Source: a virus. From it: a stretch of 64,000 nucleotides of DNA. The position numbers and the translations under genes were made by a program. How positions within the stretch are numbered: position 1 is the first letter of the stretch; each line of letters begins with the position of its first letter. Location: IMG/VR virus record IMGVR_UViG_3300008050_000026, positions 1-64,000 of that record; one strand, given 5' to 3'. Below the pieces are notes generated by a model, which searched no databases, was not told where the DNA came from, and saw only the letters and a program-made list of their open reading frames with translations. Shown here piece by piece: positions 13,578-30,966 of this stretch.

Positions 13578-14978
13578 ATGTCTAAGAAAATCATAGCTAC
13601 CGATCACCTCCACGTAGCGAAGAACCTTGTTGAAATGTACAAGGGCAAAGAGGATTACAACTCAGAAAAAATTTCAGGTGTATTGGATTACAACCTTGAA
13701 AAAGGTATCATTGATGATGATCAATTCTGTAATGCTAAGGACCAATTGGATACCATTGAAAAAGGTAGGGGAAAGACAAAGAAGATCGGGGAGTTGGATA
13801 AATCAGGCAGGAATATTAAGACTGCCAATGGTTGGGTTCCAGTTAAACATGCTGCAAAAACACATGCAGGCGCAGCTGAAGCAATTGCCAAGAAACAAGC
13901 TGCGGGACTTGATATTTCAAACTATGGACTTGATGAATACCATAAGATCATTGACTCAGCTGTAAAATCAAGGAAAGGTTTCTATACTGGATCTGGATAT
14001 GATACAGATGTTGATTTATATGAAGAAAGGAAAGCATGGGGTGAAAGTTCAAGAAAAACTTACGCGATCTTAAATCTGTTTCATCCAAGAAATAATTTCA
14101 AATATGCATTAGGTCAACAGGATACGTTGGCTACTAAGGTTCTAATGGAAACAACCAATGGGAAAACTTGGAAGAAAGTTGAAGAGCAAGTAATTGGTCA
14201 TGGATATGGTGGTCAAGTTCTTAAAGGTAAGATGGGGCGAATTGATAGTGCATACAATGGGAATGACTATAACAAGTTACGTCTTTCTCCTACGTGGATA
14301 AAACATAGGGAAAATAAAGCTGCTGAAACTAAAGAAAAAGCTGAATTCAAAAATGATCTACTTTCAAAGATACCATTTGATAGTAAGGATGAAGCCAGAA
14401 TTAAAAATATCATTGCAAGGTCAAAAGGTTCAGATAATTCAGCAATGAGTTTTGCACAAAGTATGGCTAATTCTATTAAGGATCCTAATAAAGCTATTCA
14501 ACGAGCATCTGCAGCTCATTCATTAGGACATGGTAGAATAGCTGACATATTTCTTGAAGAGGCATTCAATCTTGGATATGTTTATGAAGAACCTTACTCG
14601 CCAAAGAAAAGGAAACGAGATGGTGAACCTAAGAACTATGGTAGACCTTCACCTATCCTACCTATAGGAAAAATCAATTTGAATACTGGATCTTCTAAAT
14701 ATTTCAATGTTTATGAAACGTGGGGTGAAGACTCAACCTATGAAATATACAAAGATCTTAATTCTGGATGGAGTGATGGATCTAAGAAAAATTACAAGAT
14801 CGTCGTAACATCAGGTAAATCACCTATAAATGATGTTGGTGATAAGGCAGGTTTCATACACGATCAAAATCATAGAGGATTATTTGATGGTGAAATGATA
14901 GACCATGCGACAGGTTCAGAATTAAAAAGGTTAGCAGCAACGTATGGTAATTCAATTTCAGGATACGTATACAAGTAA
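13578..14978 (+). CDS. putative capsid-internal cargo protein 1 (type I header)
   Basis: Leader ..TIEK|G then RGKTKKIGELDKSGRNIKTANGWVPVK; unique C-terminal domains. Confidence 0.6.
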   Translation: MSKKIIATDHLHVAKNLVEMYKGKEDYNSEKISGVLDYNLEKGIIDDDQFCNAKDQLDTIEKGRGKTKKIGELDKSGRNIKTANGWVPVKHAAKTHAGAAEAIAKKQAAGLDISNYGLDEYHKIIDSAVKSRKGFYTGSGYDTDVDLYEERKAWGESSRKTYAILNLFHPRNNFKYALGQQDTLATKVLMETTNGKTWKKVEEQVIGHGYGGQVLKGKMGRIDSAYNGNDYNKLRLSPTWIKHRENKAAETKEKAEFKNDLLSKIPFDSKDEARIKNIIARSKGSDNSAMSFAQSMANSIKDPNKAIQRASAAHSLGHGRIADIFLEEAFNLGYVYEEPYSPKKRKRDGEPKNYGRPSPILPIGKINLNTGSSKYFNVYETWGEDSTYEIYKDLNSGWSDGSKKNYKIVVTSGKSPINDVGDKAGFIHDQNHRGLFDGEMIDHATGSELKRLAATYGNSISGYVYK

Positions 14979-15937
14979 TGAACAACGAGGAAAAGCGCAT
15001 ATCGAATAATATTCTCAAATCCTATGGATTAGACATTGAGAAGGGTAGGGGAACCACCAAGAAAATTGGCGAACTTGATAAGTCAGGCAAGAATATCAAA
15101 ACTGCGAATGGCTGGGTACCTGTTAAAAAACATCAAGCAGGAGGTAGTTCTGAACCAAAAGAGGGAACAATAGCAAGTATCAAAAAAGTTGCAAGAAGTT
15201 TAGGTATACCAAACGATCCAAGTGGATTAAGCGATTTTGTATCTTGGACAAAACGAGGAGGATATGCTGGTGAAAAGAAGGTAGGCACTGTTTCAAGAAA
15301 AGCTATTGAACTTGGTTGGAAAGAGGAAAGCGATTACCATGATACACATCCAGCAAATGGAAATACATCAAAAGGTACAATATTTATCTCACCTGATGGT
15401 AAATTCAAATTAGATGCCAGTGTGTACTTTGGTGAAACTGCAAGCAAAAATGCTTATGGGTTAATGCTAAAAAGGGTTAAGGAGCCTGAAACAAAAGGTG
15501 ATGGTTCAGGACTTCTTGATAAAGTAAAAGAAAATCTGAGAAAAGAAAAACCTCTTACTGCGGCTGTAATTGCTGTGGGTGTTATTAACATGAATACTGG
15601 AATGACTGGTCATGGTTGGAGTATTTATGAAAACAAAGGAATGCATGCTTTCTTGACAGATCAAGGTTCATTGCTATTAGGAAATCCAAAAACATTTGAA
15701 GTTGGTAACAAGGACATAACTCTTAGAGACAATGACTCAAATAGGCGAAAAGAATATGGAGTTGAGATAATTGATAAAGCACCTTGTAATAAAGATGAGC
15801 TTTTAAGTATGCTTGAAAAACACAGGTATCATTATAAACCATTGAAAGCGTTTAGAAAAAGACCTGAGGGAAGTAGAAAATTACGTACATCATATTCTGT
15901 AAAAGGAACTGATCACACTGAAAATTGGAGAAAATGA
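14978..15937 (+). CDS. putative capsid-internal cargo protein 2 (type I header)
   Basis: MNNEEKRISNNILKSYGLDIEK|GRGTTKKIGELDKSGKNIKTANGWVPVK. Confidence 0.6.
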   Translation: MNNEEKRISNNILKSYGLDIEKGRGTTKKIGELDKSGKNIKTANGWVPVKKHQAGGSSEPKEGTIASIKKVARSLGIPNDPSGLSDFVSWTKRGGYAGEKKVGTVSRKAIELGWKEESDYHDTHPANGNTSKGTIFISPDGKFKLDASVYFGETASKNAYGLMLKRVKEPETKGDGSGLLDKVKENLRKEKPLTAAVIAVGVINMNTGMTGHGWSIYENKGMHAFLTDQGSLLLGNPKTFEVGNKDITLRDNDSNRRKEYGVEIIDKAPCNKDELLSMLEKHRYHYKPLKAFRKRPEGSRKLRTSYSVKGTDHTENWRK

Positions 15938-16674
15938 AACCAGTAGCTAAAGACGAACAGAACATTAAGAACCGTATTGCTGAAATGTATGGCAATAAGG
16001 ATGTTCCTACATGTGAAGCAATTGCGAAATCGCTTGGTAAAAAACTCAAATCGGGTGTTATTGATCAAACCTTACATGACAAGGCGATTAACCAACTTAA
16101 TGGTACTGTTGAGAAAGGTGATGATGGGGAACTTGAAAAAGCTCACAAATATGTTAGCAGGTCTGGATCTAAAGGTCATTATAAGTATGTATATCGAGAG
16201 CATGGAGAAAAACCAGCTACAAAACATTTTGATGTAGGTGATCACGTTATGACACCATTTTCAGGAACTATAGTTGTTAGTAAAGTTGAAGGAAATGTTA
16301 TTTGGGATCATAATGGAAGAAGGATCAGTGGTTTCCAATTAAAAGATGCTGAAATAATCGGTTCACCAGAAGCACGTAGGAGAAAGGCACAAACAATTCA
16401 AGATGCCCATAATGCCAAGATAAAAGCTGAAAAGCGAGAAAGGCAGGCAAATAAGATGACTGAAGCTAAATACAATGCAGCCATTAAAGAATGGGCATCG
16501 TCATTGGCTCATGATCTTGGTGACGAAGCAATGGAAAATGTAGGTGAAACAGTTGAGAATTTCATACTTGCTCATCCAAACGTTGTAGACTATATTGAAA
16601 ATAGAAACACGTATGGATACGATAACGACCCACCTGAACTTAGAATCCAATGGGACTTAGAAGGACAACTATAA
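15934..16674 (+). CDS. putative capsid-internal cargo protein 3 (type II header)
   Basis: ATGA overlap at 15934; ..ELEK|AHKYVSRSGSKGHYKYVY. Confidence 0.6.
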   Translation: MKPVAKDEQNIKNRIAEMYGNKDVPTCEAIAKSLGKKLKSGVIDQTLHDKAINQLNGTVEKGDDGELEKAHKYVSRSGSKGHYKYVYREHGEKPATKHFDVGDHVMTPFSGTIVVSKVEGNVIWDHNGRRISGFQLKDAEIIGSPEARRRKAQTIQDAHNAKIKAEKRERQANKMTEAKYNAAIKEWASSLAHDLGDEAMENVGETVENFILAHPNVVDYIENRNTYGYDNDPPELRIQWDLEGQL

Positions 16675-17978
16675 TGAACCAAGAGGAGCAACGCATATCA
16701 AATAATATTTCAAAGGCTTACGGTATTGATATCGAGAAGGCCAGAGGTAAGGTGAAGAAGATTGGTGAACTTGATAAATCTGGAAAGAATATCAAGACAG
16801 CCAATGGATGGGTGCCTGTGAAAAAACATGGTTCTACTTCAATCAAAAAGAAAGCTTCACCAAAACCTAAAAAGGCTAATGCATCTATTCAAGATGATGT
16901 TGCTGGTCCTGATAAAAAAGGAGGATCAAAATTACTTGGTTTTGAAACGTACGATGTTAAAACAAGAATGGATCGTGCAGTTCTGTTTAGCAACTATGAA
17001 GAAAAATACATGGCTGACCATTTTGAAACAAAATGGAAAAGTGATCTAAGCGACCACCAGAAGAATGAAATAAGGGAAGCATTCTTTGCAGATCATGGTA
17101 GAGGAAAAGATAGTGCTGATCCAGAAAAAATAAGCGAACTTCTTGGGGGTAAGTTATCAGAGAAAAATGAAGCTTTATTTGCAATTGAGTCATTTTACAT
17201 ACGCGATCACGAAAAAGGCAACTATACAGATGATATGCTTAATTCTGTAACTGAAAAGACCAAAAAGGTTGTTTCACTTATTGAAAAGAATAAAGATACG
17301 TTCCAAAACTTTATAGCATCATTATATCCAGATACTGAGTCAGCAAATCGTGTTGTTTTGAGATCAAAGGATTTTGACATAATTACAGACGATCTTAATA
17401 CTGCTGCTTTCAAAATGGAATACAGGCCTAAAAAATGGGATAGCAATAGACCAAACATTGGCTTCAAATGTGTTCTTTCAAATGGTAAGATCAATACCAA
17501 TTTGAAAGCAATGCAAACAAACACAGAAAATAGTTTGGCTCGTTTTCCAGACTCTGGAACAAAAGAGCGCCTTGAATTAGAAAAGAAACTGGTTGATAGA
17601 ACAGGAGGTGACTCATCATCTAATGCAAAACATGATGATGAGCTTATTGATCTTCAAAAAATTTATGATAATTATCATACGCTTTCAAGACATTCACATA
17701 AGCAATCAACATCAAATCTTAGTAGAAAGGATGAAAACACATTGCATTTCCACGTAGGTGATATTGGTAAGAAAAAACAAGTTCATGATACTATTAGGGA
17801 TGCATTTTCACTTAGCGTTCCATCTTCAATAGGTGATTACAAGTTACAGGGAATTACTAATGGTGAAAAAATAGTTTCAAAACGTGATCACATGAAGCGA
17901 GCTCTTGAGGTTAGGGAAAATGATTACAGCGAATATGAGAATGATTATAGTATAACGTATGTTTATACTAAGAAATAA
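16674..17978 (+). CDS. putative capsid-internal cargo protein 4 (type I header)
   Basis: TAATG start at 16674; MNQEEQRISNNISKAYGIDIEK|ARGKVKKIGELDKSGKNIKTANGWVPVK. Confidence 0.6.
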   Translation: MNQEEQRISNNISKAYGIDIEKARGKVKKIGELDKSGKNIKTANGWVPVKKHGSTSIKKKASPKPKKANASIQDDVAGPDKKGGSKLLGFETYDVKTRMDRAVLFSNYEEKYMADHFETKWKSDLSDHQKNEIREAFFADHGRGKDSADPEKISELLGGKLSEKNEALFAIESFYIRDHEKGNYTDDMLNSVTEKTKKVVSLIEKNKDTFQNFIASLYPDTESANRVVLRSKDFDIITDDLNTAAFKMEYRPKKWDSNRPNIGFKCVLSNGKINTNLKAMQTNTENSLARFPDSGTKERLELEKKLVDRTGGDSSSNAKHDDELIDLQKIYDNYHTLSRHSHKQSTSNLSRKDENTLHFHVGDIGKKKQVHDTIRDAFSLSVPSSIGDYKLQGITNGEKIVSKRDHMKRALEVRENDYSEYENDYSITYVYTKK

Positions 17979-17989
17979 GTAAATCAATA

Positions 17990-18856
17990 ATGGGAGAAAA
18001 ATACAATCCAGCTGACCTGCTAAAACAAAATAGGCAGGATAGAGTTAATCCATACGAAAGTGATGGAGGACTTCAAAAAGTAGGTGAGACCTATGGCAAG
18101 ATGATTTCCTTGATGAATGAGAATTTCAACAAGGGAAAAATTGATGAAGCGTTATGCAACAGGGGCTTCGAACAACTGGATGGGTTGATTGAAAAGGCAG
18201 GTCATAGGTATATTCGTAGAGAAGGTACTCCTGGGAATTACAAGTATGTGTATGCTGAAGATGCTAAAAAAGGCGATCACGTAAAAACCACCCAACATAA
18301 TGATAAAAATCTAAGCAGAACAAAAGATACTGTTAAAGATCTTCGTATGACTGGTAAAATGTCAAAAGAGGACTATAAAAAGTATCTTGATGGTGGAGGT
18401 AAAGAAACTGATTATGTTGATCATGGTAAAAAAGAAAAATCTATTTCTGAAGAATACGATACTGAGTTAAAAAGACTTAAGGGTCTCAAGGCAAAGGTTG
18501 ATGATCGAGCTGATAAGACGCATAACTATGCTGAAGGGAAACAGCTGTTAAAAGAAAGTGATAAACTTAAAAATCAGATCGAAAAACTTGAAAAGGAGAA
18601 CAAGCAACAATCTTCAGAACCTGAAGAAAACGATTTTGAACCAGATGGAAAAATTCGAAGTAGACTAAAGATGAATTTGAGTCTTGATACAGAAGATCTT
18701 AATACATTCATTGACTCAATAAAAAATCAAGATCTTGAAGACAAAGTGTTTGGATTATTCACAGGATGGTCTAATAGTAGGGAACAAGGTGAGATGTATG
18801 AAAGAATAGAACGCGAACTTGATATGGCGGGTTATGATGCAGCACATTTGGATTAA
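17990..18856 (+). CDS. putative capsid-internal cargo protein 5 (type II header)
   Basis: ..QLDGLIEK|AGHRYIRREGTPGNYKYVY. Confidence 0.6.
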   Translation: MGEKYNPADLLKQNRQDRVNPYESDGGLQKVGETYGKMISLMNENFNKGKIDEALCNRGFEQLDGLIEKAGHRYIRREGTPGNYKYVYAEDAKKGDHVKTTQHNDKNLSRTKDTVKDLRMTGKMSKEDYKKYLDGGGKETDYVDHGKKEKSISEEYDTELKRLKGLKAKVDDRADKTHNYAEGKQLLKESDKLKNQIEKLEKENKQQSSEPEENDFEPDGKIRSRLKMNLSLDTEDLNTFIDSIKNQDLEDKVFGLFTGWSNSREQGEMYERIERELDMAGYDAAHLD

Positions 18857-18879
18857 AGGTTAGTTGTTAATAAAAATCG

Positions 18880-18887
18880 TAAATTTG
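18880..18887 (+). promoter_or_regulatory. Bacteroidota-type -7 promoter element
   Basis: TAAATTTG in gap before 18907. Confidence 0.6.
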
Positions 18888-18906
18888 TTGAAATTCAGTA
18901 GATAAA

Positions 18907-21714
18907 ATGGACGCATTGGAAGAACTTACAGGAGGCAACCTTACAGAACAAGCTAAGGATAGGATCTCAAAATCATATACATCCAGAGTAGGCGAACGAA
19001 AGATTGCCACAACTGCCTTAGCTGTAAAGACCCTCAACGATAATTTCAATAAGGGACTAATAACTGAAGACCATCTTGAAAAGGCATTCAAACAACTTGA
19101 TGGTATCATCGAGAAATCATTTCATAAGTATCTAAGTCGAGCTGGAACCCCAGGGCATTATAAGTATGTCTACCTTGAAGACCAAAAGAAAGCTGGTCAA
19201 AAAAAAAGAACAGAGGTTGATGTAGAAGGTTCAGGAACAGATGCTTCATTAGATGCACAAGCCGATAAGATTGTTCAAAGTTCAATTGATAGATATAACG
19301 ATCGCCACAACCAATTACTGTTCCATCCAAGTAGATTGCTTGAACGTTCTGTGAAACATGGTTTCATTACTGAGGAGCAATCTAATAATGAAGATTTCAT
19401 TGCTGCTGCCGAAGAGGTTGCTGAACGTTGGACCGAGGATCAGGATCCAGATGGTGATTTTGGTTCATCTGATTTTACAGCAGCTCTGGCAGATTTTATG
19501 GATGAAGCAGGCATCGCTTATCATCGAGGTGAAAGACATGAACTTAAACCAGGGCCAAAGGTAGTAAGCGATGCTGAAGTAAATGAATTAAAAGACCCAT
19601 CTGACCCAGGCTTTACTATCACAGGTGAATATGAAGGTAAACCAGTAGAATTCTCAGGTGAGCAACTTCAAAATGCTATGGATGGTGCTTTCCATAGTGC
19701 AAATACCCCAATGGATTTTGCTATTAAAGTTTTATATGCAGTAACTGATCAGACAAGCGAAATATCAAACGAAGATATGTCAAAGTTAGAATCGTGGTAT
19801 TCAGCAGAAAAAGATAGGTTACGTGGAAGAGGAGATAAGGAAGACGAAGCTGATACTTCATATAAGGGAGCAAATACTGCATTGGCAAAAATTACAGATC
19901 TTGTGAAAGATTGGTCTGGTGATACAATTACAGAAGCTGAAGTTTTATCAGTAATTGAAGCAGCCGATGATTACGGTGTTGAAGAAAATATGTTCAGAAT
20001 AGAACATCCTCGAAATCAAGATGAAGAAAGCAGAAGAGTAAATTTTGCTACTGATTACATTACAAGAAATATTCCTGAAGGGATGTGGTTACATACTATG
20101 GAGCGATCAGATGTTCGTGATATTGTATGGGGAATGGTGATGGCAAAAAGAGGTAATAACAGTATCAAGATATTTGATGCATTAAAAAAATCTGATGTTG
20201 ACATTGATATTTTGAAAAAAGGTAATTCAACACCATTCGTATTTACTGAAGAACAAGATGCATTCCTATTCAATGTGTTTGACATCATGAAAGGTGCTCC
20301 ATCAGGAAAGATTGCTAAGAAGGTCACTGTCAAAAAGAAAGATGGTGGGACTTACATGGCAACACGTTATTTCAGCCAAGAGGAGATTGATGAAATGGAA
20401 ACAAAAGGTACCACCCAAGAGGAAATGGATACCGATACATCCAATAAGATCTATGAAATATTAGAAGGGAGCAAAGCTAAATCAGCTCAACTTCGTCAAT
20501 TGATTGAAATAGGTATTCATAATCCATTCCATTTGATGGCAATGAATACTGATTACAACGAGTCAAATGTATCTCATTATCTTAAGGAGGCAGGAATTGA
20601 TCCAAAGTCATTTGGTTTTGGTAAGAAAAGAAAAGCTGCAACTGTGAATGACGATGGTTCAATTGAATATGAGGAGGACGATGACGAACCAAATCAAAAT
20701 GAATTGGAGCAGGAGATAGAAGCAATGCTTCGAGCTGATGGTTTGCTTTTTGATACTGATCTTATGGAAGCAAATGCTGAAACAGGAAAAGATGCTGTAG
20801 ATACTGTTCAGGATAAATTTGTCAACAAGGTAGCAAAAGGTGAAGCTAAACTGGCTATGATATATGGCACAGGAGGTGTTGGTAAAACATGGGGAGTAAA
20901 ACAAACTATGACTAACCCATCTGTTAAGGATGAATGGGGAGAAGAATTTGGCAATGAGTTAGTAGAATATGACTCAGAACTTCAACCAAATTCTGAAGAA
21001 TACGATTTCATAAAGTTCACAGGTCAAATATCACCTTCAAAACTTTATCGCGCATTGTATGAACACAATGGCAAAATTCTTATGCTTGATGACTGTGATG
21101 CTGTTCTACAAGATAGAACAATGGTGGATATGCTTAAAGGTGCTACAGATACAACATTGGAAGATATTGTTTGGGATGGTATGCCTATCAAACCTACAGG
21201 AGCTGATAAGGATACACCACCACTCCCTACGCGCTTCAAATTCAAAGGGGGCATTATATTCATATCGAATATGACTGAAGAAAAATTAAGACAAACTGCA
21301 TCACCTCTATTAGACTCGAGGGCACTTTCGCTTAATGTATCAAGAACAAAGGAACAGACAATTGACAAACTTGATCGTATCAAACAACACATGGAGTTTG
21401 AAGATACAAAAGGCAATGTCATAGAAGTTTCGCCAGAGTCAAGGGACGCTGCGGTTGAATTTGTGAAAAAATGGTCTAAGTATGCTGATATTGCTAAGAT
21501 CAACGCAAGAACGTTTGGTTCATTGGCAAAGGATTATGAAAGTTCAAAGTATAACGGTGTAGAAGGTTTCTTAAAATCACATTCAGCTCGATCAATAATG
21601 AATGTCCTTGATCATCAGGTTAAGAAGTACATTTATACTGAAAAGAAAAAGGAAATGAAAGCGGCAAAGGATAAAGCTGCTTTGATGAAGTCAATACATA
21701 ATCATATAGGATAA
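18907..21714 (+). CDS. multidomain cargo polyprotein with C-terminal AAA+ ATPase
   Basis: Type II header after IIEK|S; internal DIMK|G plus type III header; Walker A GTGGVGKT (20866-20889), Walker B ILMLDD, IIFISN, LDSR. Confidence 0.7.
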   Translation: MDALEELTGGNLTEQAKDRISKSYTSRVGERKIATTALAVKTLNDNFNKGLITEDHLEKAFKQLDGIIEKSFHKYLSRAGTPGHYKYVYLEDQKKAGQKKRTEVDVEGSGTDASLDAQADKIVQSSIDRYNDRHNQLLFHPSRLLERSVKHGFITEEQSNNEDFIAAAEEVAERWTEDQDPDGDFGSSDFTAALADFMDEAGIAYHRGERHELKPGPKVVSDAEVNELKDPSDPGFTITGEYEGKPVEFSGEQLQNAMDGAFHSANTPMDFAIKVLYAVTDQTSEISNEDMSKLESWYSAEKDRLRGRGDKEDEADTSYKGANTALAKITDLVKDWSGDTITEAEVLSVIEAADDYGVEENMFRIEHPRNQDEESRRVNFATDYITRNIPEGMWLHTMERSDVRDIVWGMVMAKRGNNSIKIFDALKKSDVDIDILKKGNSTPFVFTEEQDAFLFNVFDIMKGAPSGKIAKKVTVKKKDGGTYMATRYFSQEEIDEMETKGTTQEEMDTDTSNKIYEILEGSKAKSAQLRQLIEIGIHNPFHLMAMNTDYNESNVSHYLKEAGIDPKSFGFGKKRKAATVNDDGSIEYEEDDDEPNQNELEQEIEAMLRADGLLFDTDLMEANAETGKDAVDTVQDKFVNKVAKGEAKLAMIYGTGGVGKTWGVKQTMTNPSVKDEWGEEFGNELVEYDSELQPNSEEYDFIKFTGQISPSKLYRALYEHNGKILMLDDCDAVLQDRTMVDMLKGATDTTLEDIVWDGMPIKPTGADKDTPPLPTRFKFKGGIIFISNMTEEKLRQTASPLLDSRALSLNVSRTKEQTIDKLDRIKQHMEFEDTKGNVIEVSPESRDAAVEFVKKWSKYADIAKINARTFGSLAKDYESSKYNGVEGFLKSHSARSIMNVLDHQVKKYIYTEKKKEMKAAKDKAALMKSIHNHIG

Positions 21715-21947
21715 TGGCTAAAGAAGAAAAAACACCAGAAAAAGAAGTTGCTGAAAAAGGTAGTAATACCGAAAGTTCAGGATTGGATTTATCAAATGAA
21801 ACTGATGAGTCACTTAATACAACTTTAAGGGTTATGATGAGAATATATCCACATCAAACAACCCCTGTAATGCAGGCGTATTATGATGAGCTTCAAAAGC
21901 GTGGTGTAAAAGCACCTGAAAAGGAAACAGAAAAAGATGCTGCATAA
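21714..21947 (+). CDS. small hypothetical protein
   Basis: 77 aa; TAATG coupling. Confidence 0.6.
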   Translation: MAKEEKTPEKEVAEKGSNTESSGLDLSNETDESLNTTLRVMMRIYPHQTTPVMQAYYDELQKRGVKAPEKETEKDAA

Positions 21948-21949
21948 CC

Positions 21950-24472
21950 ATGGCAAAAGTAATGCCTGTAGGTACTGTACGTCACTGGAAAAAAGGTGAT
22001 GTAATAAAAGCACATGATGGTACAGCCATGCATTCAGGCTGGATAGGCCTCGAATCTCCAGAACATTTAAGACAAGTTTTCAAGGAAGCAGATACGTTAG
22101 CAAATATTCTGTATAAGAAAAAAGAGCCAATCAGTGGTGAAGTTTACCTTGATCATGAATTGAGGGAAGTAAAAAGACCACCAGATAAGAATTCAGGTCC
22201 TTATTCACCAGACAAATTCAAGATCTACGAAGGTTTCTATGGTGCAGGCAAATATTCGTTCTTCAATGAGTTTTCAAGGTTATTCATGGCCAAGAAAATT
22301 GAAGCACAGGAGTATTATATAGATATGCTTCGAAGATACAATAGGGAGGAGAAGCAAGGGAACGATAGACTTGATAGAACTTCATCTGATGAAAAGAAAA
22401 TGATAAGAAGGCGATCTAAAGAGTCGTTTGTCTTTTCAGGTGAAGAACTTAATGAAGGAGATGCACATGATATTGTAGCCTTAGTCAAAAAGGTATACAA
22501 GCACATGGAAAAAGGTATGAAGCTTGAACCTGATGAAAAAAAGGTTTATGATAAAGCAGCTGCCTTAGTTGATGGATTACCAATTAACTATGTAAGGTTG
22601 AAAGAAGCCATGCGTAGAAAGGAACTTGCTGTTAAGTTAATAGGTAAGAAATTTCCAGATAACTGGGCCATTCGAGAGTCATTCAGAATAAAGGCGACTG
22701 AGAAACTAAATGAATATCTTAAGAAATATAAGGATAGGATAGCTGAAGACGAAGCCAAGGATCAAGAAGCTACATTTGGTGTATCGTTGGATGCTCCAGT
22801 CGATGAGTTCTATGAAGCTGTATATGATAAGATTGATGGCGAACTTCATAAAGTCAAGAATTTTGATTTTGAGACATTAAAAGGTAAGAAGCACGATATT
22901 GTAATGAAAGGTGCTTACAATGGTGAACCTACACATGATTGCGTAGTTATTGACTGGAAAAAAATGATTGAAAAAAATTCAGATCTTCAAGCTGAATTTC
23001 CAGAGGCAACATATTGGATAGGTAAACCAAAACCAAAAGATAAAGAAAGTGATCCTCAGTTATATTATATGTCTCCAATCGAACCAGAGGATGAGCTTTA
23101 TTACAAAGCGCAGTTTCATCAAATGAAATACCCATTTGCTGAATTGGTCAAATTAAGATTTGCGACTAAGTACCAAAAGGAACTTGATGGTAATTGGACG
23201 TTTGATCTACTTCCAGCAATGGAAAACATTGAAAGGGCTCTTACAGGCTTACCAGAAGGACATGTATTGAACAATAAATACATTGAAACGTTCTCCCAAC
23301 AATCATTTAATGGGGGATCACATGGAGGTTATGCTTGGTTCAGTGACCATGATAGTAAGATAAATTTCTCAGATGAATGTGCAAAGCATGCAAGTATCTG
23401 GGCAAGGAGTTCAATTGCACCTGAGTTCAAAGCTACATTATATCATGAAATAGGTCATGGAGTAAGTAAAAGGTTTGGGCGTGATGGGAACCTTGATTAC
23501 AAGAAATTCACAGTTGCCGCAGGTTGGTCATATCATCAAGCTGAATTAAGAGCTGGTTTTACAAGAACAGGTGATGATAAGAATTTACCAAGACATGGTT
23601 CAAATTCTGGTACTAAGTTATTGACAGCTTATGCGCATAAATCACAGGAAGAAGCTTTTGCTGAATATTATTCAATCTATAACCTTCATAAGGATGCAAT
23701 TGATAAATGGTTAGAAACAGGTGAGTCGAAACATCTTAAAGAAACCTATGCTGTTGAGGTACCTATGAAGATTGAGAAGAAACAGTTGAAGGAATATTTC
23801 AATGATGGTTCAAATTGGGCTTTATCGTCTCAAATTAAAAATCGCTTGATTGATTTTAAGGGTAGAAACAAGATAAATATTCAAGAACATCTCGGTTTAG
23901 ATCTTATTTCACCACATAGGTGTTCAACAGTAAAGACTGAGAAAAATAAATACAGTCCTCCAAAGGTCCTTGGAAGAAAACATAGGCAAGCACATTATGT
24001 CCCACCAGTTGTAGCAGTAAAAGACAAGAATAAGTATAAATTACTCGATGGTGTTAATAGGCAAAAGGAGTTTATGTTGAAACATAAGATGATGCCAGCT
24101 CAGTTAATATCTCAGGAGCTTTATTCACAAATGAAGAAAAACGATTTTACTGACGAGGAAATTACAGGTATCGTATCATTTCATTTGAAAGATAGTATGG
24201 TACCTATTCAGGTTTCGCAACCTGTTAAAAGAGAGGGATTGATGTACAGGAACAATGTTCTTGATTATAAGGATCTTGAAAAGAACATCCAGCCCATAAG
24301 GGCTATGAAGAAAATATTTCACAGTTCAGCTTTAGTGAAGGCATTAGGAGAAACATTTGGAATAGTAAAACAAGGCCATGAACAAGGTATTGTGACCGAT
24401 GTTGATTATTTTAATGCCATCGTTAAGTATAATGAACATCGAGAAAAATTGTTAAATGGAAGAACCAGTTAA
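21950..24472 (+). CDS. multidomain protein: zincin-like metallopeptidase plus ParB-like domain
   Basis: LYHEIGH (HEIGH at 23444-23458) with downstream YAHKSQEEAFAE; PPVVAV..YKLLDGVNR; N-terminal PVGTVRHW header-like motif. Confidence 0.7.
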   Translation: MAKVMPVGTVRHWKKGDVIKAHDGTAMHSGWIGLESPEHLRQVFKEADTLANILYKKKEPISGEVYLDHELREVKRPPDKNSGPYSPDKFKIYEGFYGAGKYSFFNEFSRLFMAKKIEAQEYYIDMLRRYNREEKQGNDRLDRTSSDEKKMIRRRSKESFVFSGEELNEGDAHDIVALVKKVYKHMEKGMKLEPDEKKVYDKAAALVDGLPINYVRLKEAMRRKELAVKLIGKKFPDNWAIRESFRIKATEKLNEYLKKYKDRIAEDEAKDQEATFGVSLDAPVDEFYEAVYDKIDGELHKVKNFDFETLKGKKHDIVMKGAYNGEPTHDCVVIDWKKMIEKNSDLQAEFPEATYWIGKPKPKDKESDPQLYYMSPIEPEDELYYKAQFHQMKYPFAELVKLRFATKYQKELDGNWTFDLLPAMENIERALTGLPEGHVLNNKYIETFSQQSFNGGSHGGYAWFSDHDSKINFSDECAKHASIWARSSIAPEFKATLYHEIGHGVSKRFGRDGNLDYKKFTVAAGWSYHQAELRAGFTRTGDDKNLPRHGSNSGTKLLTAYAHKSQEEAFAEYYSIYNLHKDAIDKWLETGESKHLKETYAVEVPMKIEKKQLKEYFNDGSNWALSSQIKNRLIDFKGRNKINIQEHLGLDLISPHRCSTVKTEKNKYSPPKVLGRKHRQAHYVPPVVAVKDKNKYKLLDGVNRQKEFMLKHKMMPAQLISQELYSQMKKNDFTDEEITGIVSFHLKDSMVPIQVSQPVKREGLMYRNNVLDYKDLEKNIQPIRAMKKIFHSSALVKALGETFGIVKQGHEQGIVTDVDYFNAIVKYNEHREKLLNGRTS

Positions 24473-24593
24473 AAAGTGGAAGATCACATACGGTAACCTT
24501 GAAACAGAAGATTACGAGGGTACATTCAATGAAGCGTATGATCATGCTATGGTTAAGAGTAAAGAATTCGAAATTCTACCAGCTGATGAATGA
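24456..24593 (+). CDS. small acidic protein (45 aa) absent from ORF track
   Basis: MEEPVKKWKITYGNLETEDYEGTFNEAYDHAMVKSKEFEILPADE; overlaps both neighbours by a few nt. Confidence 0.55.
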   Translation: MEEPVKKWKITYGNLETEDYEGTFNEAYDHAMVKSKEFEILPADE

Positions 24594-27500
24594 TATAATC
24601 GAAAAATCACCTGCTGGTGTCTACGTAAACAATCCAAAGAATAAAAAGTTGGGTAGGGTAGGTGCCAGATATGGTACGTCAAAGACTGCAGGTGAATATT
24701 ATGGCAAGACTGTTAAGCATTTCAAGGAATATTCAAATGCAATAAATAACATCGCTTCAGAACTCGGAGGTGTTGCAATAGTAGCCCCACCTAAAAAACT
24801 TGAAAGAGTTCAGTATAAAGCCAAACATGAATACGGTGGTGATTTCAAAAAGGTCAAAGACATTTTAAGATCAACAATCGTAATAGGTAGAAGTAAAGCG
24901 TTGGAGCTTTGTGATACGATAAGGAAAAAATACCCATGCGTAAAAGCTTATGTAAATTTTAGTTCAGAAGGGTACCAAGGTGCCAATTTTGTATTTTCAT
25001 TTAAGGGATTTCCAGTTGAACTTCAAGTCAATACTCCAGTCAATATGGTTTTGAAACAAGGCCATGATGATAATCCTGCGTTGAAAAATGCTTATGATAT
25101 GATCAACAGTGCTGGTATACCTACTGGACTTGGTCATAAGTATTACGAAAAGTTAAGACAGGCTGGATTATCTGAAGAAACAAATACTATTGGTACTAAT
25201 TTGATGAACAAGTACTATAACTATAGGGAACTGTTCATGTTGCGTGATGAACTTACAAAGGCTTCAAAACATGGCCATGGTAAAAAAAGAAAACCCATTG
25301 TTGTTTACAATAAGAAGACTGGCAAGACATATACAAGGAACCAGATTGTAGGTGACAAACTTGAAGAACATGAGACTAAGCATCCCATAAACGAGTTCTT
25401 AAGAGGTTTAACAAAATTGTCAGCTGGCAAACAAGCCGAATTCTTCAAATGGGAAAGGGACAATGCAAAATACGTTGAAGTAAATCCAATAAGCGATCTA
25501 CCTCAAGATGTTCAAGATAATATTTGGGCAACAGGTCCTAAGATCAAAGAATGTTTTGGTAATTCTGCAAGGATCGCGATGGGAGGTATAAAGGGAGCTA
25601 AATATGTTGAAGGCTTCGTTTCTTTTGCAGGAGTGATACCTTTGGAACATGCTTGGGTCAAAATTGGAGACAAATATTACGATCCAACAGCTGAAGGTCC
25701 TTTGAAAGGAGGATCAGACATGGGACATTATACAGCATTGATTGAACTCAATGAAGATGAGGTTCTTGATTATATGGTAAAAGAAAGGAAACATGGACCT
25801 TGGGTAGGTTCATATTACTATAATAATAACGTTATGAAGAAAGGACTACTATCTACTTTGTTGAACCCATTTACTAAATTATTCGATAAACCAGAGTATC
25901 CTGAAAACATCTGTAAATCCTCAGATGAGACGACATTCAAGAACTATGCTGACTGTATATTAGTAAATGAAAAAGGTCAGCTTCTTCTACTCCTACGTGC
26001 TGATGGTGATTTTTATCCGAGACACTGGTGTTTGCCTGGGGGTAAAATAGAACAAGGGGAAACACAGGATGAAGGTGCTCTACGTGAATTGCTCGAGGAA
26101 ACAAACATCAAACCAGTAGGTTACAACTTCTTACGAGAATATGATAATGGTGATGGTACAACTTCAAGCTATTATGAAGTCCATTGCAGTGAAAATGATT
26201 TGATGATACTTGATAACAGTGAGCATTACAACTGGTGTTGGGTAGATCAAGTTGAATTAGAAAAGTTACCTTTGATACTAAGTTTACAGGAAAGGCTTGT
26301 AGATTTATTGCCATTGACAACATTCGGTATGTTTCAAGCAAACCCTTTTACAATGACTTCAATAATCGAACAAGAGACCAATAATATTTCACCACAGTTA
26401 CAGGCCAAGCATCAAAAAGAAGATGCTGCATATTACATTATTAAAACTGCCTATGATAATGGCCAACTTGGGGAGGCAGCATTCTTGAAAGCTTCATCGC
26501 AATATACTGAAATCAAAAAAGGACGCCCTGCACAAATTGGTGAGATACGAGAATGGGGAGGAGTTAAGAAACAAAAAACTGCAAATGGATGGGTCCCAGT
26601 TAAATCAGGTAAGAAAGGAGCTAAAGTTGAGGATGAGGGAAAGGATGAGAAAACTGCAAAACCAGAGGATGAAAAAACTCAACATTCTGAAGAGGAACTT
26701 GCTGGACATGCTCAAAACGCTTCTGAAGCTGACCTAAAGAAAACAGTTAGTAATTCCAAGGATGAGAAATTAAGGGTTGCTGCACAAAAGGAGCTTCAAC
26801 GTCGAACCGAACAATCTGATGAGATTACTGGTAAGAACAAAGATGAGGATGCTGATGGTTGGGCTAAGAAAGATGGTGAGGATAAGAAAGGTGCTGGCGG
26901 AGAAGCAAAAACTCCCGAACATGATTATTCTGAAGATGAAGATGGATTTCATGAACAAGTTTCAAGAGCAAGAAAAGCTTATGACAATCCAATGGATGAT
27001 AAGATGAAGGATCATGCAAAGTCTTTCCTTGATGGGGCAAAAGACCATAAGAAGAAAATGGGCTTTGGTTCAGAACCTGAAGACAAATCTGTTGAAAAGG
27101 AGAAATCTGATAATGCAAAAATGAAACAAGTCATGGATTTCCTTGATGGAGAACATGGTGGTGCTTCATTAGAACCAGTAAAAGGCAAGCCAGGGTTGTG
27201 GCGAGACTCAGAAAACGATATTCTTGATAAGAAAGACATAATTGCTCTTCACGAACAGTTTGATAAAGAAGGCTTGTTTGAAGAAGAGGGAATAAGCCCT
27301 GATAGTGGAAAAGATGACGATGGTTATCAAGAATGGTTAGAGAGCAGGAATTGGCGAAAACCACAAGCAGAGATTGATGCAGAGGAAAAAGCAAAGAAAG
27401 AAGAAACAACTGAAAAAGCTGGAGATCAATTATTAGAAGACTTGGGAATTGGTTATTCAACAGATACTTACAGCATATTTTTATCAGATGGGGTAAGTTC

Positions 27501-27771
27501 TAAGACTACACCAACAACTCTTGATAAAATGAAAAAGAATGGTGAAGATTTTGTTGAAGATAAAGAATTCAATCTAAGTCAATTGGAAGGGTTTATTGGT
27601 GGAGAAGACAAAATGAAAGAAGCTGTTAAGAAACGAGCAGCAAAAGAAAAAGTTTCCAATGACGAAATGATGTGGGCAGATAATTACACCGAAACCCAAG
27701 AAAAATTAAAAACCGCAAAAGATGGTCTTAGTAAAATAGAAGCTAAGATGGGTGAAACTAAAAAGAAATAG
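24586..27771 (+). CDS. cargo polyprotein: RelA/SpoT-type synthetase, transglutaminase/papain-like domain, Nudix hydrolase, acidic domain
   Basis: ATG 24586 (MNDIIEK|S); K..R...K, DILRST, GYQG, VELQVNT, GHKYYE; KECFGNS/EHAW/YDPT; Nudix box GKIEQGETQDEGALRELLEETNI. Confidence 0.8.
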   Translation: MNDIIEKSPAGVYVNNPKNKKLGRVGARYGTSKTAGEYYGKTVKHFKEYSNAINNIASELGGVAIVAPPKKLERVQYKAKHEYGGDFKKVKDILRSTIVIGRSKALELCDTIRKKYPCVKAYVNFSSEGYQGANFVFSFKGFPVELQVNTPVNMVLKQGHDDNPALKNAYDMINSAGIPTGLGHKYYEKLRQAGLSEETNTIGTNLMNKYYNYRELFMLRDELTKASKHGHGKKRKPIVVYNKKTGKTYTRNQIVGDKLEEHETKHPINEFLRGLTKLSAGKQAEFFKWERDNAKYVEVNPISDLPQDVQDNIWATGPKIKECFGNSARIAMGGIKGAKYVEGFVSFAGVIPLEHAWVKIGDKYYDPTAEGPLKGGSDMGHYTALIELNEDEVLDYMVKERKHGPWVGSYYYNNNVMKKGLLSTLLNPFTKLFDKPEYPENICKSSDETTFKNYADCILVNEKGQLLLLLRADGDFYPRHWCLPGGKIEQGETQDEGALRELLEETNIKPVGYNFLREYDNGDGTTSSYYEVHCSENDLMILDNSEHYNWCWVDQVELEKLPLILSLQERLVDLLPLTTFGMFQANPFTMTSIIEQETNNISPQLQAKHQKEDAAYYIIKTAYDNGQLGEAAFLKASSQYTEIKKGRPAQIGEIREWGGVKKQKTANGWVPVKSGKKGAKVEDEGKDEKTAKPEDEKTQHSEEELAGHAQNASEADLKKTVSNSKDEKLRVAAQKELQRRTEQSDEITGKNKDEDADGWAKKDGEDKKGAGGEAKTPEHDYSEDEDGFHEQVSRARKAYDNPMDDKMKDHAKSFLDGAKDHKKKMGFGSEPEDKSVEKEKSDNAKMKQVMDFLDGEHGGASLEPVKGKPGLWRDSENDILDKKDIIALHEQFDKEGLFEEEGISPDSGKDDDGYQEWLESRNWRKPQAEIDAEEKAKKEETTEKAGDQLLEDLGIGYSTDTYSIFLSDGVSSKTTPTTLDKMKKNGEDFVEDKEFNLSQLEGFIGGEDKMKEAVKKRAAKEKVSNDEMMWADNYTETQEKLKTAKDGLSKIEAKMGETKKK

Positions 27772-27773
27772 TT

Positions 27774-27781: not shown

Positions 27782-27786
27782 TAAAG

Positions 27787-29430
27787 ATGAAAGCTGCAAA
27801 AGATAACTTCAAATTCTTTATACCTGCCGATTTTGTAAAAGGCATTGATGATGATGGTCATGAGACTATGATGATCAAGGGAGTAGCTTCTACCAATAGA
27901 AAGGACTCACAAGGTGAAATACTCGATGTGAATGGTTTCGATCTTACTGATTTCTCGGTTATCAATTGGAACCATAAGGGAAAGGATGACGCAGGAGCTA
28001 TAATTGGCGAACCTACCAAAGCTGAGGTAAAAGGGAACAAGTTATTGATTGAAGGCATGCTTTATCCAGAAATGCCAATGGCGAAAGCTGTATTCAATTT
28101 AATGAAGGCATATAAGAACTCCCCTACAGGAAAACAACTTGGACTATCAATTGAAGGAAAGGCATTGTCAAGAGATAATGTAAACCCAAAGAAAATCAAT
28201 AGGGCCAAAGTAACAGGGGTTGCAGTATGTCCACATCCTATAAATGGGGATACAACTGTTGAACTATTGGAAAAAAGCTTTACACATGGAGATTTCGAGT
28301 TTGATGAAGATGAACTTGAAAGTGTAGAAAAAGCAAATGACTTCTGGTCCTTAATAGATAGTGATAGCAAATTCAAAGAATATGTTACTTCTAATAATAA
28401 GGAAGACAGAGCTGGTGGTGAAATTGGCGATATTACTGAGATAGAAAGGAATAGATTACTTAAAGCTTATACGGCAGCAGGTAACGTTCACGTATCTAAG
28501 GAGTCAGTAGAACACGATCCAAAAGGCATTGTAGATGGTAAAAAGAAAAATTTATCAAAATCTGATGTCTACGAAAAGATTTTTGATTATTTTGGTCCCG
28601 TCGAAACAAAAACGGCTCAAGGAATATACTCGTTAGTAGATAAAATTTCAACTATGGAAAAGCAACCTATCTCAGAAGACACTCTCAAAAAAGCAGAAGA
28701 AATCCTTAACCTTTCAACTGAGGAACTTATTAAGAAAGCAGCAGAAGATGGAGGCGATAAGATAAGTGATGATGATGAAGGTGACAAGAAAGATGGCGAA
28801 TATGAGGGAGAGGATGGAGTAGAAAAAGCAGAAGCATTTGCAAAATCAGAATTTGCAAAAGGAACCAAAGAAGCTGACATCGTCAGTACCTTAACTAAGG
28901 GAGGCCTTGGAATTGAAAAGGCACAAGCATGTGTCAAATCATGTGTTGCTGAAGCCAATCGAAAACGAGAAGGTGGAGACGTTACGACTTTGAAAAAATC
29001 ATTTGATGAGCAAACTGACATCATAAAAGGTTTCGGTGTTTCAATGGATCAAAAATTCTCAGCTGTCCTTGATATTATGAAAGGACAATCTGAAAAGATT
29101 AGCTCACTCGAAGAAATAAATAAAGGATTGGCTTCAGAAATTGAAGCATTTGGCAATTCAGGTGCCAAAAGGAAATCCGTTCCATCATTGAAGATGATCG
29201 AAAAATTCGAAAAATCTGTTGATGGTTCAGAAACGTATCAACTATCCAATAAGACTTCACGAGGATTACTTGTATCTCGCATCAATGAGGCTTCAGGCTT
29301 GAATGGTGGAGATCCAGATAAAGTGAATATGGCACTTGCAAGGGTAGCACAAGACATTGAATTGACCCAATCGGTTACTGCACCAGGGCTTCAGTTATTG
29401 AAGTCGCATCAAATCGAGGTTATCAAATAA
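27787..29430 (+). CDS. prohead protease fused to scaffold
   Basis: IKGVAST..DSQGE, INWNH, IIGEP, GLSIEG, VAVCPHPIN; charged helical C-half; directly upstream of capsid gene. Confidence 0.88.
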   Translation: MKAAKDNFKFFIPADFVKGIDDDGHETMMIKGVASTNRKDSQGEILDVNGFDLTDFSVINWNHKGKDDAGAIIGEPTKAEVKGNKLLIEGMLYPEMPMAKAVFNLMKAYKNSPTGKQLGLSIEGKALSRDNVNPKKINRAKVTGVAVCPHPINGDTTVELLEKSFTHGDFEFDEDELESVEKANDFWSLIDSDSKFKEYVTSNNKEDRAGGEIGDITEIERNRLLKAYTAAGNVHVSKESVEHDPKGIVDGKKKNLSKSDVYEKIFDYFGPVETKTAQGIYSLVDKISTMEKQPISEDTLKKAEEILNLSTEELIKKAAEDGGDKISDDDEGDKKDGEYEGEDGVEKAEAFAKSEFAKGTKEADIVSTLTKGGLGIEKAQACVKSCVAEANRKREGGDVTTLKKSFDEQTDIIKGFGVSMDQKFSAVLDIMKGQSEKISSLEEINKGLASEIEAFGNSGAKRKSVPSLKMIEKFEKSVDGSETYQLSNKTSRGLLVSRINEASGLNGGDPDKVNMALARVAQDIELTQSVTAPGLQLLKSHQIEVIK

Positions 29431-30942: not shown

Positions 30943-30966
30943 GGGGTAACAACATAATTACTTAAG

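Follow-up and report, generated by a model that had tools for sequence, protein, structure and literature searches.

Gene organization of the locus

The window, i.e. the whole 64,000-nucleotide stretch of DNA that was analysed, comes from an uncultured marine phage of ~97 kb and contains eight neighbouring ORFs (P1–P8; 13578–27771, + strand) within a head-gene block. Upstream, the array is flanked by the genes for the portal protein (1320..3035, +; phrog_12), which delimits the head module upstream, and for a MuF/SPP1 gp7-like head morphogenesis protein (6427..7359, +), which has a C-terminal CxxC...HPYCRC and 45% identity to the genes in the MuF position of relatives. Downstream, on the same strand, are the genes for a prohead protease with a fused scaffold-like domain (27787..29430, +; phrog_1028; protease part, aa 1–~163) and for an SPO1-like major capsid protein (29467..30942, +; phrog_752) with a propeptide at aa 1–25. 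The protease matches the PHROG head maturation protease family with an E-value of 1e-36 and Pfam Peptidase_S78 with 15.1 bits, under the 21-bit cut-off; its conserved His63 and Ser121 are shared with Chryseobacterium phage MA9V-3. A strong intrinsic terminator (30963..30996, +; 14-bp stem and T run) lies directly 3' of the capsid gene, no other convincing one was found on the + strand across 13578–30942, and the array, protease-scaffold and capsid genes appear to be co-transcribed. The array also includes a 77-aa ORF (21714–21947). No match to the region was obtained by megablast among 50,697 phage records.

An earlier sequence-only reading of this DNA had described the eight ORFs as having unrelated bodies and shared short parts, and all-against-all BLAST of the eight proteins agrees with it, as the similarity is limited to a leader and a basic tag. 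In seven of the eight, the leader ends in hydrophobic-Glu-Lys, the next residue is Gly, Ala or Ser, and the tag and an unrelated body follow, so that all seven junctions proposed by that reading could be located. Three kinds of tags are found in the window (GW hairpin, YKYVY and NKKLGRVG), with net charges of +3 to +7 in 32 residues.

P1 to P5 are single-body proteins, without two or more effector domains. P1 (466 aa; 13578..14978, +) has a leader (aa 1–62; 13578–13763) ending in TIEK62|G, a GW tag (aa 63–92; 13764–13853; HMM E-value 3e-5), and an orphan body for which we found no fold or feature match and nothing usable from Atlas. P2 (319 aa; 14978..15937, +) has a short leader (aa 1–22, ending in DIEK22|G), a GW tag (15044–15133) and an orphan body. 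The long leader of P3 (249 aa; 15925..16674, +) has two sites (VEK64|G and ELEK72|A) and is followed by a YKYVY tag (16141–16194) and an orphan body; the start of P3 is most likely at 15934, giving 246 aa. P4 (442 aa; 16650..17978, +) contains a short leader (DIEK30|A), a GW tag (16740–16829) and an orphan body, and P5 (288 aa; 17990..18856, +) a long leader (LIEK69|A), a YKYVY tag (18197–18253) and a charged body. Searches of Pfam and PHROGs returned no family for P1–P5 or P7, and phmmer against PDB returned no match for P6 or P7.

P6 (935 aa; 18907..21714, +) contains a long leader with two sites (LEK59|A and IIEK70|S), a YKYVY tag (19117–19173), a variable middle, and a P-loop ATPase domain (aa 637–873; 20815–21525; phrog_1250). 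The ATPase is homologous to a 545-aa protein of MA9V-3 (E-value 2e-33) that has a short leader and a GW tag; the same ATPase cargo is found under different tags in the two phages (YKYVY in P6, GW in MA9V-3). One leader family likewise bears different tags.

P7 (840 aa; 21950..24472, +) is leaderless: its N-terminus, MAKVMPVGTVRHW, contains a variant of the GW tag (aa 3–34; 21956–22051; HMM E-value 6e-7), as had been noticed from the sequence. An N-terminal extension was ruled out because there is an in-frame stop directly upstream. Most of the full-length homologues of P7 (23 of 25) likewise start with MA[KR]..P.GT.R.W and have no leader. P7 contains an intact zincin motif (HEIGH at aa 499, 23444; VIA Z 12 to M34-type zincins) and a ParB-like domain (DGVNR at aa 700, 24047; Foldseek match to the ParB/sulfiredoxin fold, probability 1.0, E-value 5e-3), with the fold matches being moderate ones obtained from an AF2 model of mean pLDDT 82. 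P7 has no match to Pfam ddrB-ParB or MPTase-PolyVal at E-value ≤ 5, and its Atlas leads are weak (<0.9; the DdrB-like lead scores 0.80).

P8 (1090 aa; 24499..27771, +) has the site IIEK36|S, an NKKLGRVG tag (24607–24678) and a long charged tail. Its start is most likely at 24586, which leaves a minimal leader, MNDIIEK|S, and agrees with the public gene call of 1061 aa. Residues 60–222 align to residues 245–412 of the Tas1 chain (PDB 6ox6; E-value 3.5e-17) and are predicted to form a Tas1-like RelA/SpoT (p)ppApp synthetase domain. P8 further contains a Nudix domain (aa 483–589; 25945–26265; Pfam NUDIX 61.7 bits versus a cut-off of 21.1; Nudix box GGKIEQGETQDEGALRELLEETNI), a Cys-His-Asp transglutaminase-like signature seen by eye (aa 352–397), and an internal GW tag (aa 675–705; 26521–26613; HMM E-value 6e-17) that follows EIKK674|G. 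The hydrophobic-x-K[GAS] motifs at 254, 448, 473, 664 and 674 lie between its domains.

The putative cleavage site is shared with the capsid and scaffold

Scanning the whole 97-kb genome, we found 11 occurrences of [ILVMF]EK[GAS] in the eight genes as compared to 2.2 expected (Poisson P 2e-5) and five in the protease-scaffold gene as compared to 0.34 expected (P 3e-5); the motif is not enriched in the other 104 ORFs (10 versus 7.6 expected, P 0.23). A compositional artefact was ruled out as the source of the enrichment, since the shuffles control for composition. The looser motif, hydrophobic-x-K[GAS], occurs 21 times in the protease-scaffold (4 expected), consistent with the earlier description of a scaffold saturated with it, and site counts within the bodies of P7 and P8 are not above the expectation from composition. 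The end of the capsid propeptide, ELLK25|AMQAG, which had been proposed to carry the same motif, is retained across 12 relatives; in the SP-10 'major capsid protein precursor', the aligned site is NLNK|ALEAG. The SP-10 scaffold contains eight hydrophobic-x-K|[GAS] sites. That capsid proteins of the SPO1/K type are cut after Lys is background, in line with the SP-10 'precursor' annotation and alignment; we found no publication giving the cleavage site of Herelleviridae capsids. The portal protein of the window lacks the site that portals of relatives have. Conservation of the motif extends to two places where prohead cleavage is unlikely, namely the N-terminal region of the protease domain and a probable neck protein (32327–33109).

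The longer leaders, in the window and in relatives, hold several tandem sites, as expected of propeptides that get chopped up. In an AF2 model of P2 (aa 1–75), a helix (3–15) is followed by a coil that includes K22|G23 and by a beta-hairpin (39–48); the site is thus predicted to sit in a coil between the leader helix and the tag hairpin.

The cut might also be made by a cargo-encoded zincin (MPTase, P7-type) or by a host protease. The HEIGH zincin of P7 is intact, and autoprocessing of DdrB-like proteins by their MPTase has been suggested (PMC5512222). We nevertheless regard processing by such enzymes as very improbable as compared to processing by the prohead protease: the site matches the capsid propeptide and scaffold also in phages that have no zincin near the head genes (SP-10), and most of the tagged proteins and loci are without a zincin.

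Tags and their coupling to the site

A search for related loci with the single protease protein as the query retrieved 0 relatives, so an alignment was needed as the query; a narrower GW alignment used as the locus query returned mostly the same contigs. In 17 related loci with four tag classes (GW, YKYVY, NRKLGRVG and GHTKSGKPIY), 28 of the 32 tags follow hydrophobic-x-K|[GAS], as compared to ~6% expected. Using a 30-position GW profile, built without the cleavage site, we identified 730 clusters at E-value ≤ 1e-3 in a library of 1.84 billion proteins; among the best 150 proteins, a hydrophobic-x-Lys site precedes 190 of the 202 GW modules (94%). The site also precedes all 13 of the 13 NRKLGRVG tags. 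Two cultured relatives follow the same rule, MA9V-3 with GW tags and Bacteroides phage DAC19 with the NRKLGRVG tag. Site and tag are thus found coupled in hundreds of protein clusters, and the rule extends to variation between strains. Headers of homologues not preferentially preceded by x-x-K|[AGS] had been named in advance as an outcome that would speak against the proposed system; as the tags there are overwhelmingly preceded by this motif, its general reading stands.

In the window, an HMM built from 201 GW modules of other sequences matches only P8 (internal), P2, P7 (N-terminus), P4 and P1, and a six-frame scan of the genome found no tags outside the array. MA9V-3 is the only isolate phage in which we found the GW tag. 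A word-indexed search retrieved only seven proteins with the YKYVY tag, which is either rare or missed by this kind of search, and tblastn detected the GHTKSGKPIY tag in no isolate phage, possibly owing to low-complexity masking. We found no prior description of these tags in the literature, and nothing relevant on 'LGRVG'. The domains of GW-bearing proteins are of the polyvalent type (NUDIX, LPD1, ART-PolyVal, InPase, SAM lyase and topoisomerase IB).

Site and tag are nearly inseparable, as would also be the case if they formed one folded unit, and the near-obligate coupling of Lys and GW means that the Lys could be merely a part of the module. Hydrophobic-Glu-Lys-Gly may then form a conserved cap at the N-terminus of small, uncleaved structural modules, with the proteins being late non-virion proteins (assembly factors or cytoplasmic effectors) or uncleaved virion components; the retention of the motif in the protease core and the 32327–33109 protein is in line with this. 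We consider it unlikely, however, because one site stands ahead of four unrelated tag classes and of the mature capsid N-terminus, the scaffold domain is filled with sites, sites occur in tandem within leaders, and the modelled site is in a coil outside the hairpin.

Strains exchange cargo behind the tag

Strains from other marine samples have exchanged cargo bodies, with breakpoints at the border of tag and cargo. In a related strain, 52 nt of P1 are swapped for 208 nt at 13855, right behind the tag. In P4 of a related strain, 726 other nt stand in place of the body (16877–17973), with the leader, the tag and the beginning of P5 retained. P3 has a strain-variant joint at 16196, also right behind the tag, and a variant of P5 with a 174-nt deletion is found in other samples. 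Read mapping at 85% likeness gave no cover for parts of P1 and P2 in run X2.

Proposed mechanism and the loading signal

As unrelated enzymes are preceded by the same site and by basic tags, the eight proteins are most likely cargo that is loaded, trimmed and delivered. We infer cleavage, packaging and delivery from the gene anatomy, motif statistics, site-tag coupling, domain identities and cassette exchange, and, judged from these, the eight genes probably encode capsid-loaded cargo that is processed by the prohead protease and delivered with the DNA. They would be internal head (ejection-type) proteins of an SPO1-like marine myophage, whose host is probably a member of Bacteroidota, with a cassette order of degradable N-terminal propeptide, hydrophobic-x-Lys|Gly/Ala/Ser site, basic beta-hairpin tag and variable effector. 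The cargo proteins would enter the prohead and be cut there by the Lys-specific serine protease, at the motif also used for the capsid propeptide and scaffold, which would turn the tag into the new N-terminus; multi-domain members such as P8 may be cut further between their domains. The mature enzymes would remain in the capsid and pass into the host with the DNA, as a set of a Tas1-like (p)ppApp synthetase, a Nudix enzyme, a zincin and ParB-like pair, a P-loop ATPase and several orphans.

The sequence-only reading had assigned the routing into the prohead to the leader, and retention on DNA or ejection to the exposed header. Its picture of head-module proteins with a prohead-protease site and swappable cargo is borne out by our in silico tests; this division of labour is unsupported, given the leaderless P7 family (23 of 25), leaders of 6–9 residues, and tags that are internal, repeated or C-terminal. 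Such tags (e.g. the C-terminal one of the MA9V-3 Nudix protein) misfit a simple model of an N-terminal leader.

It is quite possible, if short of an even chance, that the cargo is packaged and clipped with the tag as its address, the leader being only a removable mask or spacer over the N-terminus of the tag; by analogy with encapsulin loading peptides, the basic hairpin would dock on the scaffold, the inner wall of the capsid, the portal or the DNA. The P7 family puts the tag first, about 24 of the 150 GW proteins have leaders of <20 residues (e.g. MNNIIEK|G; many of 6–9 residues), the tags are conserved far above the leaders, and in multi-module proteins each module has its own tag. On the other hand, an amphipathic helix that ends in S-Y-G recurs in many of the leaders, which suggests that the leader has a function of its own (15 of 104 leaders match a regular expression as compared to 3.6% of shuffles, which is suggestive given that the expression is a crude one and not a proper profile). 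Also, the repeated units of polyproteins include part of the leader, so that the repetition may only reflect gene fusion. Because of the leaderless P7 family and the leaders of 6–9 residues, we lean towards the tag as the loading determinant; the leader helix is a less likely candidate, and a joint action of both is unlikely. More tentatively still, the four tags might be interchangeable docking peptides for the interior of the HK97-fold capsid or for the packaged DNA that become active once the protease frees their N-terminus, a suggestion that we hold to be doubtful.

Comparison with known systems

Encapsulin cargo-loading peptides are short, conserved and usually C-terminal, and bring diverse cargo into an HK97-fold shell without a protease; their resemblance to the tags described here is by analogy, with no sequence similarity. 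MuF-fused polymorphic toxins of temperate phages, the subject of Jamet et al. 2017, reportedly combine swappable toxins with a constant module for incorporation into the head; that constant module is a whole, uncleaved MuF domain, whereas in this phage MuF is encoded on its own and it is a tag of 20–30 residues that stays constant.

The capsid-targeting sequences of T4 (IPI–III and Alt; gp21) are similar in that an N-terminal leader on unrelated proteins, down to ~7–10 residues, ends in the phage's own prohead-protease motif, and the T4 internal proteins are packaged into the head and injected. In the present phage, an SPO1/HK97-like protease (phrog_1028, weak S78) takes the place of one of the gp21 family (S77), the site is hydrophobic-x-Lys| instead of Leu/Ile-x-Glu|, a conserved basic tag without counterpart in T4 follows the cut, and there are multi-enzyme cargo proteins of 800–1100 aa and a leaderless tagged family. 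Removal of propeptides from ejection proteins by the protease is established in T4, phiKZ and SPN3US (PMC10052503). Many head-internal E proteins of phiKZ, 201phi2-1 and SPN3US (gp175/gp245) have propeptides of 20–250 residues at their N-termini, cut at a short motif and often at multiple sites with the fragments cleared (PMC10052503), but their proteases cut after A/S-x-Glu and a shared post-cleavage tag has not been reported for them; moreover, phages of the phiKZ type are jumbo phages with an inner body, as compared to ~97 kb here.

The locus also resembles those of polyvalent proteins (Iyer, Burroughs, Anand, de Souza and Aravind 2017, PMC5512222) in its domains (RelA/SpoT, Nudix, MPTase zincin, ParB and P-loop), in genes beside portal and MuF that are predicted to be capsid-packaged, and in relatives with LPD1, ART-PolyVal and InPase. 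P8 (Tas1-like, Nudix) and P7 (zincin, ParB-like) each have at least two effector domains, the number that defines a polyvalent protein, whereas five of the eight genes are single-body. That survey proposes MPTase autoprocessing and contains no leader, prohead-protease site or tag ('leader', 'linker' and 'head protease' are absent from it). The Dar proteins of phage P1 (processed DarA; DdrB with ParB and MPTase) are anti-defence cargo associated with the head. P7 is predicted to share the domain pair of DdrB, but with a different domain order, a GW tag and no detectable sequence homology. P8 matches the toxin domain of Tas1, a (p)ppApp synthetase toxin of Pseudomonas aeruginosa type VI secretion; its activity is a predicted one, its delivery would be by the phage head instead of the T6SS, and the domain is fused to Nudix and others.

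The concept itself is already known from the T4 capsid-targeting sequences, the phiKZ/SPN3US ejection proteins and the polyvalent proteins; the Lys-specific protease site and the tags differ. For loading and processing, the locus offers a testable alternative to the embedded-zincin autoprocessing suggested by the 2017 survey, in which a three-residue Lys site, common to capsid and scaffold, precedes one of a small number of tags of 20–30 residues. The doubtful docking-tag suggestion would, if true, amount to a proteolysis-gated code for loading and ejection, comparable to encapsulin loading peptides, by which a phage lineage plugs arbitrary enzymes into its virion and which might be reused for foreign proteins. 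If the proposed mechanism is true, it would provide a compact means of tagging proteins for packaging into phage heads. It would also identify the injected arsenal of a widespread lineage of marine and gut Bacteroidota phages, including an alarmone-type toxin domain, a Nudix enzyme, a metallopeptidase and ParB.

Genomic setting of the P1-P8 genes

The source record (IMG/VR) is 97,074 bp long with a completeness estimate of 96%, and the window is its first 64 kb. The eight neighbouring genes P1-P8 (13578-27771) lie between the portal gene (1320-3035) and a protease-scaffold fusion gene (27787-29430; head-maturation protease plus scaffold-like domain), which is followed by the gene for an SPO1-like major capsid protein (29467-30942), all three assigned by PHROG search; together with a MuF-like gene (6427-7359), all of them are on the + strand throughout. 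Among cultured phages, the myovirus Chryseobacterium phage MA9V-3 (PMC13120357) is the nearest relative, with a capsid identity of 61%, followed by Bacteroides DAC phages (38%) and then Herelleviridae (about 30%), and marine metagenomes from several studies contain the same DNA as the window. Since the herellevirus SP-10 (a Bacillus phage) has its portal, protease, scaffold and capsid genes side by side, the 24-kb portal-protease stretch, P1-P8 included, is lineage-specific.

Two other features were seen in this region. Glycosyltransferase- and methyltransferase-like genes (8762-13546; phrog_8156 methyltransferase, phrog_7999) are found between the MuF-like gene and P1-P8, within the head module, and a Lys/Glu-rich ORF of 77 aa (21714-21947), which has no tag, is squeezed between P6 and P7, its start overlapping the P6 stop and its end lying 3 nt before the P7 start.

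Anatomy of leaders, sites and tags

The sequence-only reading had described a leader, a Lys site and a basic header (here called tag) in front of variable cargo bodies, and the translations bear this out: in seven of the eight proteins the leader closes with hydrophobic-Glu-Lys, the next residue being Gly, Ala or Ser, and a tag comes after it, and the eighth, P7 (21950-24472), indeed opens with a header-like motif, a GW variant at its very start. The GW tag (K-I-G-E-L-D-K-S-G-K-N-I-K-T-A-N-G-W-V-P-V-K) is carried by P1 (13578-14978), P2 and P4 (16650-17978), the YKYVY tag (H-K-Y-x-S-R-x-G-x-x-G-x-Y-K-Y-V-Y) by P3 (15925-16674), P5 (17990-18856) and P6 (18907-21714), and the NKKLGRVG tag by P8 (24499-27771), which has a second tag, a canonical GW, at residues 675-705. 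Three tag classes thus co-exist in one phage, and a fourth is found in relatives. Similarity among P1-P8 is limited to leaders and tags (all-against-all BLAST). An HMM made exclusively from non-window GW modules matched five proteins of the window, P8, P2, P7, P4 and P1, and no others, and a six-frame scan of the whole genome found no tags outside P1-P8. Tags have a net charge of +3 to +7 per 32 residues, and leaders are neutral to acidic. As far as tested, the tags are absent from Pfam and PHROGs; of 50,697 isolate phage records, MA9V-3 is the only one in which the GW tag occurs.

Coupling of site and tag in homologues

Headers in homologues had been expected to be preferentially preceded by x-x-K↓[AGS] (arrow, putative cut), and this holds. 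Among 17 related loci, the site precedes 28 of 32 tags from four classes (about 6% expected), including the class absent from the window (GGEGSKGGK-V-I-G-H-T-K-S-G-K-P-I-Y). A search of 1.84 billion representative proteins with a GW profile of 30 positions, beginning after the Lys, matched 730 of them (E <= 1e-3); the top 150 (hmmsearch) contain 202 modules, with hydrophobic-x-K[GAS] in front of 190 and its strict form in front of 132. All 13 NRKLGRVG tags retrieved, including the Bacteroides DAC19 family and one Zeta-toxin domain protein, have the site 7-10 residues upstream.

The fourth-class tag always stands behind hydrophobic-E-K↓G, and its carriers are small proteins encoded at scattered positions both downstream of the capsid gene and upstream of the protease (L013, 14614-16243; L018, 15747-17712; L020, 5994-6464 and 7499-9382; L012, 7563-9392).

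The hydrophobic-x-Lys motif as a candidate protease site

The motif [ILVMF]EK[GAS] occurs 11 times in P1-P8 vs 2.2 expected (P ~2e-5, whole-genome count with shuffles) and five times in the protease-scaffold vs 0.34 expected (P ~3e-5, shuffles), and it is not enriched in the remaining 104 ORFs (10 vs 7.6 expected). The scaffold had been described as saturated with such sites and the capsid propeptide as ending in one; we find the looser hydrophobic-x-K[GAS] 21 times in the protease-scaffold (4 expected) and ELLK25↓AMQAG in the capsid protein. Around this capsid Lys, in 12 relatives, the preceding sequence varies and the following sequence is nearly invariant; the counterpart of this Lys in the SP-10 protein annotated as 'major capsid protein precursor' is, by alignment, NLNK26↓ALEAG. 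The separate scaffold of SP-10 has eight hydrophobic-x-K↓S sites, and the junction of protease domain (aa 1-~163) and scaffold domain in the window's fused product holds LLEK163↓S. In relatives, the longer leaders hold two to four sites in tandem, matching the multi-site shredding documented for SPN3US propeptides (PMC10052503). In an AlphaFold2 model of P2 residues 1-75 (62-sequence alignment; mean pLDDT 65.8, about 80 for helix and hairpin), a leader helix (3-15) is followed by a coil with K22↓G23 and a beta-hairpin (39-48), so the site is predicted to be accessible. These indirect lines, from sequence and model, suggest hydrophobic-x-Lys as a candidate cleavage site of the protease. A conserved motif alone is no proof of cutting, as two places where prohead cleavage is unlikely have kept it too: the protease domain, in its N-terminal part, and a probable neck protein (32327-33109; phrog_1004, virion structural). 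The latter has hydrophobic-hydrophobic-E-K↓[AS]-x-x-C-P-C...C-x-x-C at about residue 37, conserved in all relatives, and is either one more substrate of the protease or a caution that conservation of the motif need not mean cleavage.

Similar sites were seen in other head proteins. In SP-10, the procapsid protease (L029, 4491-5234) has a C-terminus, VSK↓TMEAGYATTPETQSDGGALRRESVE, that repeats how the mature capsid protein (5932-7344) begins, LNK↓ALEAGYGTSPDTQSGGGAFRVESLE, and that looks like a capsid-mimicking anchoring segment behind the same Lys site. Portal N-termini in five related loci (L001, L008, L013, L018 and L019) have a conserved hydrophobic-x-K↓A at about residues 28-44 (e.g. LALEK↓AFKSND); the window portal (1320-3035) has LLIKEALSTDD at the equivalent place, with no G/A/S after the Lys.

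Cargo domains and probable cassette exchange

One domain of P8 resembles the (p)ppApp synthetase toxin Tas1 (6ox6, E 3.5e-17) and another is a canonical Nudix domain; between the two lies a Cys-His-Asp signature, transglutaminase-like by eye, and hydrophobic-x-K[GAS] sites are located between the domains. The toxin-like domain and the Nudix hydrolase (24676-26265) are on a single polypeptide: the toxin could come with its own hydrolase, or the two could act as separate effectors. Several relatives (MA9V-3, L007, L014 and DAC19) have a GW-tagged Nudix gene immediately upstream of the protease. The model of P7 residues 300-840 (mean pLDDT 82) matches M34-type zincins with a VIA Z of 12 over 172 residues (rmsd 3.3) and the ParB/sulfiredoxin fold with a Foldseek probability of 1.0 (E 5e-3), HEIGH being at residue 499 and DGVNR at 700; this zincin and ParB-like combination is the domain pair described for phage P1 DdrB (PMC5512222). 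P1-P5 have orphan bodies.

Leader classes (none, minimal, short, long) and tag classes combine freely. The long leader of P1 is joined to a GW tag, and the same leader family is joined to YKYVY in P3, P5 and P6; the ATPase domain of P6 is homologous to an MA9V-3 protein (E 2e-33) whose leader, by contrast, is short and whose tag is GW. GW-tagged proteins elsewhere have NUDIX (10/80), LPD1, ART-PolyVal, InPase, SAM lyase and topoisomerase IB domains, and most are without any Pfam domain. Strain variants from metagenome contigs, aligned at 85% likeness, give good hints, though not proof, of cassette replacement in other marine samples: the P4 body (16877-17973) is exchanged for 726 unrelated bases with leader, tag and next gene retained, and the P1 replacement (at 13855) and the P3 joint (at 16196) are immediately behind the tag, placing the breakpoints at or just past the tag/cargo border. 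A P5 variant with a 174-nt in-frame deletion (18446-18621; 230 aa vs 288) was also seen in other samples, where both a database protein and joints in contigs show it.

Leader or tag as the address

Several observations do not fit the proposal that the leader routes these proteins into the prohead. Twenty-three of 25 members of the P7 family begin with M-A-K-x-x-P-x-G-T-x-R-x-W, i.e. a tag without a leader, their start coinciding with the place where a cut would leave the tag. About 24 of the 150 GW proteins have leaders of fewer than 20 residues (e.g. MNNIIEK↓G), internal tags occur (up to four copies per protein), and the MA9V-3 Nudix protein has its tag at the extreme C-terminus. The tag is therefore at least as good a candidate as the leader for the loading determinant. 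However, an amphipathic helix with S-Y-G at its end recurs in many leaders, which argues that the leader is not mere filler.

Relation to known systems

In function, the P1-P8 system would resemble the T4 capsid-targeting sequence with its internal proteins and the phiKZ and SPN3US ejection proteins, but it is no member of the T4 system because protease family and specificity differ. By content it belongs to the polyvalent proteins, in the description of which leaders, linkers and head-protease sites are not mentioned (Iyer et al. 2017; PMC5512222). The original idea of packaged, protease-processed modular cargo is partly supported: the anatomy and the site-tag coupling in homologues agree with it, and the proposed mechanism with the leader as address fits poorly. 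The basic charge of the tag would be compatible with possible roles in DNA retention and ejection. We consider it fairly probable that P1-P8 are cargo proteins packaged in the head and processed by the prohead protease.
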